From an uncultured Muribaculaceae bacterium (GTDB lineage Bacteria; Pseudomonadota; Alphaproteobacteria; Rs-D84), in the NCBI GenBank assembly GCA_965231035.1, contig OZ246409.1:241101-273100 (forward strand): a stretch of DNA of 32,000 nucleotides. The letters run 5' to 3'. Positions 13,745 through 15,922 of the stretch are shown piece after piece. Each line of letters starts with the position of its first letter. Positions within the stretch are counted from its first letter, which is position 1. Made by a program: the position numbers and the translations under genes. Below the pieces are notes generated by a model. It worked only from the letters and a program-made list of their open reading frames with translations, was not told the DNA's origin and searched no databases.

Positions 13745-14473
13745 CTAAGACGGGTTAATATTTACGTCAGTCATCAGTTTTTTAGTATATTTTCTTTCGG
13801 TCTTCAATAATTTTTCAAGTTGCTTTTTTTTAATGCGAGAAAACGCCAGTGAGTATGGTGATCTATTACTAAATTTTTCGTACCAAGAACTGAACCTGCG
13901 ATCTTTCATATAAGAATATAAACTTGCGGCATCTTTGTGTTTATTTTTATCCTTTACTATGGTTTTAATCATATTATCCATCGCCAGATAATAAAGCTTT
14001 GCCCGGTGTTTTATATATTTTAATTCATCATCACTAAATATTTTTGGTTCTTTAACCCACTTCTTTTGTAACAAAGAATACCTTTCATACGGTATATTAG
14101 AAAAAGTTACTGATATATCTATACTTATTCCGGAACAATCGGGTTTATACTTATCAACAAAAAAATTTCTAATAAATCTTATAAAATTATTTACTAGGTC
14201 TGGTTTGATTTTTTCCATATATCTGTCTGGCTTTATAAATATTTTTAAATCCAAATCAGATTTTCTTGAATAAAAGTAATTAACAGAAGATCCACATAAA
14301 AAAACATCAACAACATCATTTTCTAAATCAATTGGAATGTTCGCATAAACAGACAAAACTGTCATAAAAGAAATATATGTTCTTGTCAGAACTTCAGCAA
14401 CTTCGGGTATCATAGATCCATCAGATTGCCATACTTTTGGGTTTAATTTTGAATGATTGTGTATTCTGAACAT
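13745..14473 (-). CDS. Pol-beta-superfamily nucleotidyltransferase paralog 1 of 3 (242 aa)
   Basis: Motifs present: LNPKVW; FLCGSSVNYFYSRKSDLDL, the hG[GS]-x(9-13)-D-x-D minimal-NTase signature; RPDRY-like KPDRYM; and GISIDIS as a possible third carboxylate strand. No signal peptide. An AGGAG RBS lies inside the end of paralog 2. The junction reads TAG-c-ATG. Confidence 0.7.
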   Translation of the reverse strand: MFRIHNHSKLNPKVWQSDGSMIPEVAEVLTRTYISFMTVLSVYANIPIDLENDVVDVFLCGSSVNYFYSRKSDLDLKIFIKPDRYMEKIKPDLVNNFIRFIRNFFVDKYKPDCSGISIDISVTFSNIPYERYSLLQKKWVKEPKIFSDDELKYIKHRAKLYYLAMDNMIKTIVKDKNKHKDAASLYSYMKDRRFSSWYEKFSNRSPYSLAFSRIKKKQLEKLLKTERKYTKKLMTDVNINPS

Positions 14474-14474
14474 G

Positions 14475-15203
14475 CTAGTTAGTATCTCCTAACATTAAAC
14501 TTTTTATTAACTCTTTATTAGTATTTAGCATTTTATCCGTAAGTCCAGAATTTTTAACACGAGATAAAGCTTGAGAATACGGTCCTCTAATTCCAAAGCT
14601 TTCTTTCCATGATTCCACTCTTTTTTTTCTTAGATACGCATATACTTTTGGAATATCAAAGTGTTTATTCTTGTCCTTAATAACACCCATCATAATATTT
14701 CTGATAGATAGATAATATAATTTTTTCCTATGTTCAATATACTTTAACTCACTATTTGTAAGTTTTTTTGGTTTTATTAACCATTTTTTTTGAATCAAAG
14801 AATATTTTGTAATATCTAGTGATTCACCTACAATACCAATATCCACAGGTATACCAAAAATATTAGGAGAATATTTTGCAACAAAATAGCTACTTACAAA
14901 TTTAGAAAAAGACTTGTAAGTTTCGATATCCATTTTCTCTAAATATCTATCTGGTCTTACTTTTATTTTTAAGTCTATATCGGATTTTTTTGTATAAAAA
15001 TAATCTGCACAAGAGCCACCTATGACAATTTCTTCTATATCTTTTTCTAAATCCACGGGAATTTTTGAAAAAGTGGCCAATGAACTCATAACCGCAACAA
15101 CAATATTATTTAACACAAAATCAACATCTGGCCGTAATGAACAATCCCTGCGCCATATTTTTGGATTTAATCTTTTATGATTTGATTTTCTTATTATATA
15201 CAC
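14475..15203 (-). CDS. Pol-beta-superfamily nucleotidyltransferase paralog 2 of 3 (242 aa)
   Basis: Motifs present: LNPKIW; VIGGSCADYFYTKKSDIDL; RPDRYL; GIPVDIG. The start is GTG at 15203-15201 and overlaps the last 10 nt of paralog 3. Confidence 0.7.
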   Translation of the reverse strand: MYIIRKSNHKRLNPKIWRRDCSLRPDVDFVLNNIVVAVMSSLATFSKIPVDLEKDIEEIVIGGSCADYFYTKKSDIDLKIKVRPDRYLEKMDIETYKSFSKFVSSYFVAKYSPNIFGIPVDIGIVGESLDITKYSLIQKKWLIKPKKLTNSELKYIEHRKKLYYLSIRNIMMGVIKDKNKHFDIPKVYAYLRKKRVESWKESFGIRGPYSQALSRVKNSGLTDKMLNTNKELIKSLMLGDTN

Positions 15204-15922
15204 TTTTTCCCCAGAATTAATTTCTTTATTATATTTGTATCGGTTTCTAATATTTTTTTTATAAAACCTTTATTATTAATTTGAGAATAAGCCTTGGAAA
15301 ATGGTAAATAGCTTTTTATATCACCTTTCCAAGCTTCAAATCTACGCTTTCTTAAATCAGAAGCAAATTTTGTCAGTTTGTCATAATTCCTTTTGTTTTT
15401 TAAGAAATCGTTGATCTCATTTTTTAGTGAAATATATATTTTATTTGATTCTTTTTCTATTTCTTTTATTTCTTCGCAGGTTAACTTCGTAGGTTCACGC
15501 AACCACTTTCTCTGGCTTATTGAATATCTAGCAAAATCATAATTATCGCCTGCAGAAAGACTTATATCTACATATAACCCATAAATCCTTGGGGAATATT
15601 TTTTTATAAAAAAGCTTTTAACAAAATTTAAAAACTCTTCAAATATTTCTGGTCGCATTTTCTTTAAGTATCTATCAGGTCTGATAATTATTGTTACATC
15701 TATATCAGAATTTTTATCATAAAAATATTCTACTGAAGAGCCGCTTATTATGACGTCAATAACATCGTACTCGTAATCTAAAGAAATTCCGGCATAACCT
15801 GACAATACTGTCATAAAAGAAATACATATCCTGATTAAAGCATCCGAAACATCTGATTTTAAATACAAATCAGAATTCCAAAGTTTTGGATTTAATATTT
15901 CATGATTTTCTATTCTAAACAT
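15194..15922 (-). CDS. Pol-beta-superfamily nucleotidyltransferase paralog 3 of 3 (242 aa)
   Basis: Motifs present: LNPKLW; IISGSSVEYFYDKNSDIDV; RPDRYL; GLYVDIS. The ATG at 15922 lies 10 nt after the stop of the upstream Cys-rich gene, with no obvious SD. Confidence 0.7.
   Translation of the reverse strand: MFRIENHEILNPKLWNSDLYLKSDVSDALIRICISFMTVLSGYAGISLDYEYDVIDVIISGSSVEYFYDKNSDIDVTIIIRPDRYLKKMRPEIFEEFLNFVKSFFIKKYSPRIYGLYVDISLSAGDNYDFARYSISQRKWLREPTKLTCEEIKEIEKESNKIYISLKNEINDFLKNKRNYDKLTKFASDLRKRRFEAWKGDIKSYLPFSKAYSQINNKGFIKKILETDTNIIKKLILGKKCI

Follow-up and report, generated by a model that had tools for sequence, protein, structure and literature searches.

Nucleotidyltransferases (NTases) of the Pol-beta fold have been described from several bacterial and phage systems. 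Many of the small ones are dimeric, e.g., KNTase, LinB and MNT, and some belong to known toxin-antitoxin (TA) systems, such as MNT, AbiEii and MenT. DrrA, which stems from an intracellular bacterium, modifies a protein hydroxyl with an NTase that forms a single domain in a large secreted effector. Among polyvalent proteins, a Pol-beta NTase has been reported solely for firmicute conjugative elements, usually as a fusion to ArdC-N (PMC5512222), and the polyvalent-protein NTases were predicted to nucleotidylate proteins and classed with the protein modifiers (Iyer et al. 2017, PMC5512222). Finally, synthesis of cyclic dinucleotides is reported for the phage NTases of BCP1/Av-05 (Ho et al., bioRxiv 10.1101/2022.06.09.495361). 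Here we compare with these systems three adjoining NTase genes, termed A, B and C, from a 32,000-nucleotide stretch of contig OZ246409.1 of an uncultured alphaproteobacterium; this whole stretch is called the window. The novelty is modest but real: a large undescribed family that leads phage polyvalent proteins, and a rare, basic, multi-copy bacterial offshoot locked to an exported Cys-rich protein.

The trio lies on the minus strand, with paralog A in first position (15194..15922, ATG start, isoelectric point (pI) 9.1), followed by B (14475..15203, GTG start, pI ~9.7) and C (13745..14473, ATG start, pI ~9.6). That these are three consecutive paralogs of 242 aa each had been proposed in a first-pass annotation made from the sequence by eye, and is borne out by the list of open reading frames (ORFs) and by the matching NCBI calls (HNY25403, HNY25402 and HNY25401 for A, B and C, each a “hypothetical protein”). 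The equal length holds as such, yet is a coincidence, since orthologs span 239-250 aa. The paralogs align from end to end at 41-44% identity, within the third to half of positions estimated at first (BLASTP E=1e-65 for A versus B, E=7e-74 for B versus C). Their DNA matches extend over merely 16-22 nt, which is chance level, and hence the paralogs duplicated long ago and have escaped homogenisation by recent gene conversion.

Both gene junctions read by eye are present and support the tight coupling of the trio. The GTG of B is located inside the last codons of A (a 10-nt overlap) with GGGGA just before it, and the ATG of C begins 1 nt past the TAG of B (TAG-c-ATG), preceded by GGAGA. Including the gene for an exported Cys-rich protein in front of A, the spacings amount to +10, -10 and +1 nt, and no terminator is found within the unit. 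The A/B overlap (15194-15215) reads GGGGAAAAAGTG and places B in the -1 frame relative to A. Slippage on the A-run would give an A-B fusion like the natural tandem proteins of phages described below; coupled re-initiation is the simpler reading, because the frame relation is not kept in the related locus L001. The block is indeed more AT-rich than its flank, with a GC content of 0.278 versus 0.38-0.39 in rpsB and tsf. This low GC persists across genomes whose orthologs are just 55% identical and is absent in a relative of 48% GC, and thus is not a sign of recent import. As noted at first, a signal peptide is missing: A, B and C each lack an N-terminal hydrophobic segment, and their hydrophobicity over 19 residues peaks in the first core helix (mean hydropathy 1.1-1.7).

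Every motif listed in the first-pass annotation was found and is invariant across the trio, namely H7, L-N-P-K-x-W, G61-S62, S72-D73-x-D75, P-D-R-Y, D119-I120, Y-S...Q-x-K-W, R194...W198 and P...S-x-A-x-S. Codons checked individually confirm that all three copies retain the catalytic residues. On the minus strand, the core of A (G61-S62, S72-D73-x-D75, D119) maps to 15566..15742, that of B (G63-S64, S74-D75-x-D77, D121) to 14841..15017 and that of C (G61-S62, S72-D73-x-D75, D119) to 14117..14293; alignments agree for each, as does a structural model for A. The superfamily signature, h-G-[GS] followed 9-13 residues on by [DE]-h-[DE]-h, is thus present in A (G61-S62...D73-I-D75), B and C, and D119 on the next strand of the modelled core of A provides the third carboxylate. 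In addition, each paralog carries a family-specific N-terminal element, H-x3-N-P-K-x-W. All 15 aligned members of the bacterial clade keep G61, S62, S72, D73 and D119, and D75 is altered in one: the A-type ortholog P0003 is the sole clade member with the second catalytic Asp replaced (S-D-I-N instead of S-D-I-D). In an alignment of 33 family sequences G61, S72 and D73 never vary and D75 hardly does, while the position of D119 is E in phage members.

Profile matches and predicted topology together recover the NTase core in the searches that the first-pass annotation had proposed. An AlphaFold2 model of A, based on a 14-sequence alignment (predicted local distance difference test 84, predicted template modelling score (pTM) 0.77), shows helix 23-44, strand 54-60, G61-S62, strand 73-80 with D73 and D75, helix 91-109 and strand 116-123 with D119. 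This order is canonical for a Pol-beta NTase and is followed by a C-terminal four-helix bundle at 149-236. The trio scores 16.9-20.7 bits against Pfam NTP_transf_2 (PF01909), just below the cut-off of 21 (A, 20.7), and matches two other NTase models weakly. In the wider family 13 of 85 scanned members pass NTP_transf_2 at E<=1e-4 (best, 3.8e-10), and the phage-type protein P0017 scores 39 bits to it while matching the family profile at 5e-84. A profile of 33 solo family members finds solved NTases, with the minimal NTase 9xbd_E at E=4.3e-4, the DrrA AMPylation domain as second-best solved structure at E=5e-4, and AF0614, MNT/MntA, ANT(3'')(9) and a terminal uridylyltransferase at lower ranks. 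Foldseek gave no significant match in the PDB (best E=0.036, template modelling (TM) score 0.23, root-mean-square deviation (rmsd) ~15 A); its leading matches and most of its top 12 are NTases, among them AAD(9), LinB, CdnE, CdnD, AadA and ANT(6). The assignment of a predicted Pol-beta NTase core fold to A, B and C is firm, and nothing closer than the superfamily is established.

The minimal NTases (PF01909; MNT/MntA, AF0614, 9xbd_E) share with the trio the G-S and D-x-D motifs, the third carboxylate and the helix-strand-helix-strand-helix-strand fold. In contrast to them, the trio proteins are twice as long, carry the extra N-terminal N-P-K-x-W element and the C-terminal four-helix bundle, and have no HEPN partner. 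The alignment with the N-terminal AMPylation domain of DrrA/SidM (PDB 3nku/6yx5) spans the first helix, G-S, D-x-D and the next helix, ~80 residues in all. Nothing aligns outside this core, and the trio shows no sign of secretion or of a Rab-like target; resemblance to adenylyltransferases of the GlnE/DrrA type was seen at E=5e-4, over ~80 core residues only.

No Pfam, NCBIfam or PADLOC family covers the trio. Its sole library family is PHROG 36119, of unknown function (E=2e-13, 5e-13 and, for A, 8.8e-17), whose members are phage singletons, whereas the trio belongs to a bacterial subclade that is basic and multi-copy and shares just 22-38% identity with the phage proteins. When 1.84 billion cluster representatives (50% identity) were searched with a profile, 4,462 scored at E<=1e-3, of which 2,026 reached E<=1e-30. 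The statement in the first-pass annotation that the family recurs in phages proved right. Apart from PHROG 36119, it occurs in T4-like cyanophages (S-CRM01 g125, S-N03, S-B68) and Caulobacter phage Cr30, and 153 family matches in IMG/VR were confirmed by tblastn. Uncultured-phage proteins in BFVD match structurally at E ~1e-11. In 16 annotated phage records the family always appears as a singleton “hypothetical protein”, and 80 out of 80 IMG/VR loci hold exactly one member. About one third of the members at these 80 loci are solo proteins of 227-250 aa; most others form the N-terminal domain (residues ~15-236) of proteins of 400-2146 aa. The fusion partners include ART-PolyVal, DUF5662, DUF6934, DUF5661, SAM lyase, RelE/YafQ, HD and GNAT, as well as dCMP deaminase, M48 peptidase, Amidoligase_2, NT5C, ParB_N and PARP, a set that matches the makeup of injected “polyvalent proteins” (PMC5512222). 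Many family relatives are therefore polyvalent proteins, whereas A, B and C are stand-alone single-domain proteins.

In a minority of the phage members, two NTase domains are naturally fused in tandem, e.g., P0017, P0019-P0021, P0023 and P0034. P0017 (510 aa, a fused tandem) is encoded at L012 8001-9533, on a 173-kb phage-like contig, near two class-I aminoacyl-tRNA synthetases, an RNA 2'-phosphotransferase and four tRNA-Lys genes.

The family, then, is mainly one of tailed phages with one copy each, either solo, acidic and ~230 aa long, or the N-terminal module of a polyvalent protein. It appears to be an undescribed phage-type NTase module distinct from PF18765, since the published Pol-beta NTase is PF18765 (“Polbeta”), whose cut-off the trio misses (10-17.8 bits vs 26.9). 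Both are Pol-beta NTases inside multi-effector polyvalent proteins of mobile elements. Unlike PF18765, however, the present family is N-terminal in phage-type polyvalent proteins and combined with ART-PolyVal, DUF5662 and SAM lyase, and ArdC-N was not among the families matched in a fusion-partner census of 85 members.

Within the family, the trio and its nearest relatives stand apart. Scored against a set of 164 retrieved sequences, 12 cluster representatives reach >=187 bits (>=37% identity) to the trio, and everything else remains at <=96 bits. The pI is 8.6-10.2 in 11 of these 12, the 48%-GC genome included, compared with a median of 4.7 in the rest of the family. This subclade is restricted to a few uncultured, mostly low-GC, Rickettsiales-like alphaproteobacterial metagenome-assembled genomes (MAGs). 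Orthologs of A are 55-57% identical in loci L001 and L007, those of B 52-66% in L001, and C has an ortholog at L001 9449-10180 with 54% identity and a common C-terminal tail, “MTD..NP.”. A distance tree separates an A-type clade, always the first gene, from a B/C-type clade, and the split into B-type and C-type is common to the window genome and L001. As read from these sequences, the pair of A-type and B/C-type genes is ancestral, with the window carrying an A-B-C form.

The first-pass annotation stated that the trio has no HEPN, antitoxin, effector or sensor partner. This holds for HEPN, antitoxin and sensor genes, but it overlooked the exported Cys-rich gene 10 nt upstream, which is conserved and accompanies the NTases in every genome examined. 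This gene (15933..16559, minus strand) encodes a protein of 208 aa with an N-terminal signal/anchor and a Ser-rich C-terminal tail. Homologs immediately precede the NTases in L001 (three copies), L007, L009, L011, L093 and L096/97, and in every recovered locus the first NTase gene begins 1-80 nt past the stop of the exported Cys-rich gene. The Cys-rich family comprises 7 clusters in total, all from the same lineage, and has no Pfam match. The proposed survey of singletons versus triplets likewise gave a split answer: phages carry singletons, and bacterial loci hold 1-5 copies with conserved neighbours.

In the window, the order of the locus is Pom porin, terminator, a 208-aa signal-peptide protein, a 96-aa Cys-rich protein, the 208-aa Cys-rich protein, A, B, C, rpsB and tsf, and it is the same up to tsf in a close strain (L096/L097). 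The strong terminator-like hairpin after the Pom porin gene (17572..17607, minus strand; 16-bp stem and T-run) is the probable upstream limit of the transcription unit. The first gene past it (16899..17525, minus strand; 208 aa, signal peptide) also stands beside Pom in L001, L007, L011 and L096/97. The next one (16577..16867, minus strand) encodes the small exported Cys-rich protein of 96 aa, which has homologs in the same place in L001 (89 aa), L009 (91 aa) and L011 (93 aa). Inside these two genes there are two weak matches to a hairpin on the minus strand, and no terminator-like site was found from the last cassette genes (Cys-rich, A, B and C) to rpsB. The signal-peptide proteins encoded at 15933-16559, 16577-16867 and 23055-24077 are Cys-rich with repeated C-x-x-C ... 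P-G-T-S, have Ser-rich tails and lack a Pfam match.

Elsewhere the cassette is varied around the same pairing. L001 and L002/L008 encode an exported HExxH protein, the 89-aa Cys protein, a Cys-rich gene with two NTases, a second with a decayed NTase remnant and a third with three NTases, followed by rpsB. In L007 a Cys-rich gene and two NTases precede rpsB. L009, from a “Rickettsiales bacterium” MAG, has the HExxH protein, the 91-aa Cys protein, the Cys-rich gene and two NTases, next to a serine recombinase; L011 has the same five genes, then unrelated ones, and L093 comprises the HExxH protein, the Cys-rich gene, one NTase and a glycosyltransferase. The exported protein of 377-521 aa that heads the cassette (L001 2790-3926, L009 145-1569, L011 50-1183, L093 559-2124) is absent from the window. 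It has HExxH in L001, L009 and L093, and THEDDH in the L011 copy, and its sole Pfam hint is Tox-MPTase4 (E=0.067). The remnant at L001 6945-7193, after the middle copy of the Cys-rich gene, is a decayed NTase C-terminus, “FSIAFSYVRDTGLIDKMLDINKE”; the array thus gains as well as loses copies.

The best joint explanation, in which confidence and doubt are evenly balanced, is that the trio are active, coupled NTase paralogs that act on a macromolecular acceptor in an envelope or host-interface task and were domesticated from phage. Each paralog would be a Mg-dependent enzyme that catalyses NTP + acceptor-OH -> acceptor-NMP + PPi (nucleoside triphosphate, acceptor hydroxyl, nucleoside monophosphate and pyrophosphate, respectively). 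The copies would be made from one predicted transcript and kept at a fixed ratio by coupled translation. Most likely they would act jointly as a hetero-oligomer, otherwise as diversified isoenzymes; joint action is suggested by the conserved pair of A and B/C, by the tandem fusions that occur naturally in phages and by the fact that many small NTases are dimers, and on these sequence comparisons a hetero-oligomer of A, B and C is plausible. The acceptor would most likely be a macromolecule, either a protein hydroxyl, as for DrrA, GlnE and MntA, or an RNA 3' end. Protein nucleotidylation may be slightly favoured, because the DrrA match exceeds the bare motif and Iyer et al. class polyvalent NTases with the protein modifiers; RNA stays in play, because the subclade proteins are basic. 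The task would be tied to the exported proteins predicted to share the transcript, and thereby to the biology of the envelope or the host interface rather than to defence against phages, and the enzyme itself would be a phage counter-defence enzyme domesticated by the bacterium.

A narrower version of this explanation has only a small chance of being right. It holds that an alphaproteobacterium with a small genome, probably associated with eukaryotes, took up a counter-defence NTase from a phage, and that this enzyme became an A/B/C hetero-oligomer serving the co-encoded exported Cys-rich proteins, by nucleotidylating them, a carrier that they need, or a host target in addition. If true, this would be a new nucleotidylation system, acting on proteins or the envelope where symbiont and host meet.

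Several observations weigh against the explanation preferred here. An AlphaFold model of a natural tandem fusion (pTM 0.58, disordered linker) gives no support for a defined dimer, and a hetero-oligomer cannot be obligatory, because L093 has a single copy. The Cys-rich and NTase families are both confined to one narrow clade, within which their link could be inherited synteny. A direct enzyme-substrate relation is topologically awkward, since the Cys-rich domain is predicted to be extracytoplasmic and the NTases have no export signal; the link is therefore taken to mean “same pathway or same interface”, not “substrate”. Evidence for constraint is affected as well: compared with the close strain (L096/L097), the ratios of nonsynonymous to synonymous substitution rates (dN/dS) are 0.12 for A, 0.09 for B and 0.24 for C, values that rest on merely 2-5 amino-acid changes per gene, because a 3.3-kb tract (~15950-12700) that is ~99% identical to L097 spans the trio and rpsB. 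The flanks of the tract are ~95% identical to L097, and dS is 0.03-0.06 inside versus 0.14-0.22 outside, which suggests a recent recombination tract, not gene-specific constraint. Finally, the trio has no significant similarity to characterised NTases outside the ~80-residue core, where the likeness ends, and the acceptor is therefore a guess.

Among the other explanations, an RNA 3'-end nucleotidyltransferase survives best, though it is unlikely. In this case the basic paralogs would bind tRNA or other RNA and extend it by nucleotides for tailing, repair or blocking, like CCA-adding enzymes, RlaP or MenT. The strongly basic subclade (pI 9.1-9.9 for the trio) fits this idea, and so does the genomic setting of some members: the Cr30 homolog sits between tRNA-Pro and tRNA-Met, P0017 has the tRNA-related neighbours named above, and rpsB-tsf-tyrS adjoins the NTase genes not only in the window but also in at least four related assemblies (L001, L002/L008, L007 and L096/L097). 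As a general rule, however, the tRNA link fails, as a tRNA was found within 6 kb at 0 of 50 IMG/VR loci, and L009, L011 and L093 are not beside translation genes. Moreover, phage members are mostly acidic, and the trio has no RlaP or PolyA_pol Pfam match even at E<=10.

There is a slim chance that the trio makes cyclic or linear oligonucleotides, as a signalling-nucleotide synthase or as the source of a defence or counter-defence messenger. Part of this idea goes back to the first-pass annotation, which had put forward a signalling-nucleotide or defence-related system; that proposal was not supported, since no significant PADLOC or CD-NTase match and no effector or sensor gene was recognised in the window. 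The wider family is found on the counter-defence side of phages, in fusions with ART-PolyVal, SAM lyase, RelE/YafQ, GNAT and HD, which speaks against defence and leaves room for a counter-defence messenger. CdnE and CdnD do occur among the weak Foldseek matches, yet at E>=0.09 and a TM score of ~0.2, and the PADLOC scan of the trio returned only a weak PDC-S09 (E=0.0034). Membership in the CD-NTases of cyclic-oligonucleotide-based anti-phage signalling systems (CBASS) was rejected, as there was no PADLOC CD-NTase match and no CBASS-like context.

As a phage precedent, RlaP-type NTases of BCP1/Av-05 are reported to jam TIR-STING with the cyclic dinucleotides that they make (bioRxiv 10.1101/2022.06.09.495361), and the RlaP (PF10127) phage NTases resemble the trio in being Pol-beta, phage-encoded and found in counter-defence neighbourhoods, with 9 residues from G-S to S-D-x-D and an N-P motif. 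In RlaP, however, this motif (N-P-x-h-h-[DE]) follows S-D-x-D by ~60 residues, whereas N-P-K-x-W of the trio precedes it by ~60. Membership in this group was rejected as well: PF10127, which the Av-05 NTase itself matches at 5.4e-13, gave no match to the trio at E<=10, and a profile comparison (hhalign) with the Av-05 NTase gave a probability of 0.3%. The conserved neighbours of the trio, moreover, are exported Cys-rich proteins.

Slimmer still is the prospect that the paralogs are small-molecule O-nucleotidyltransferases of the ANT/LinB/KNTase type, diversified against antibiotics or metabolites. Like ANT(9), AadA, LinB and KNTase, the trio proteins are ~250 aa long and consist of an NTase domain followed by a helical bundle, and AAD(9), LinB, AadA and ANT(6) are the best Foldseek matches in the PDB. 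These matches are poor, however (E 0.036 or worse, TM score ~0.2, rmsd ~15 A), the phage polyvalent-protein context fits badly, and NCBIfam ANT_9 scores 13.3 bits vs a cut-off of 340; membership in the ANT/LinB group was thus rejected.

It is hardly probable that the locus is a TA or immunity system, with one type of paralog acting as the toxin and the other as its antidote, or with the NTases shielding the producer from its own exported Cys-rich protein. The heterotypic pair of A and B/C is conserved and tightly coupled, Cys-rich and NTase genes were co-duplicated in L001, and NTases are part of known TA systems. Both paralog types, however, keep all catalytic residues, one copy suffices in L093, there is no AbiEi partner, and PADLOC again gave only a weak PDC-S09 (E>=0.0034). 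An MNT-HEPN module differs in size (~100-140 aa vs 242 aa plus a helical domain), and the neighbours of the trio encode neither HEPN nor another Pfam domain. Finally, decaying or neutral lineage-specific duplicates without current function are scarcely credible: low GC, the variable copy number (1-5) and the one decayed remnant would agree with this view, yet ORFs are intact in at least seven genomes at 37-57% identity, with invariant catalytic residues and dN/dS of 0.09-0.24.

The family itself, with ~4,460 clusters at 50% identity, is among the commonest leading domains of giant injected polyvalent proteins in environmental phages, and finding its substrate would help to explain how phages disable their hosts at the start of infection. 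AGS81163.1 of Caulobacter phage Cr30 and g125 of Synechococcus phage S-CRM01 are examples of tractable relatives. The bacterial subclade represents a natural experiment, in which the fold moved to a cellular genome, changed from acidic to strongly basic, multiplied to form fixed heterotypic sets and became locked to an exported Cys-rich protein. It offers a handle on enzyme recognition, and shows reduced-genome bacteria recycling phage weaponry.

Further features of the window concern other genes. The tyrS region (9162-11728) looks like a replaced segment: tyrS is just 51% identical to that of the sister strain, the strains being otherwise 95-99% identical, and two low-GC ORFs of unknown function between tsf and tyrS (10373-11032 and 11039-11728) are both missing from the sister strain. 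In the latter, a Fic gene that the window lacks stands between the genes for the M23 and S41 peptidases. Pyruvate:ferredoxin oxidoreductase (1697-5203) and the Protochlamydia-type outer-membrane porin Pom (17618-19150) are encoded in the window, whose source is a low-GC alphaproteobacterial MAG with an 848-kb contig; together, this suggests an anaerobic, possibly host-associated lifestyle. Where gene orientation flips from minus to plus, a tRNA-Leu(GAG) gene is located at 19236-19320. A mechanically called ORF of 1036 aa (19273-22383, no Pfam match) overlaps this tRNA gene, and its true start therefore lies further downstream. Finally, the stretch 24093-25420 (GC ~0.26) contains 14 copies of the 18-bp perfect palindrome TGTCCAATATATTGGACA, 9 of them exact and 5 with one mismatch, where 0.01 are expected, and none occurs elsewhere in the window. 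The copies are spaced 70-369 bp apart, mostly 70-150, include an exact 220-bp tandem duplication (24511-24950) within their range, and surround a small minus-strand ORF (24978-25283, 101 aa). The array is a candidate for a set of protein-binding sites, e.g., iterons, a centromere or an operator.

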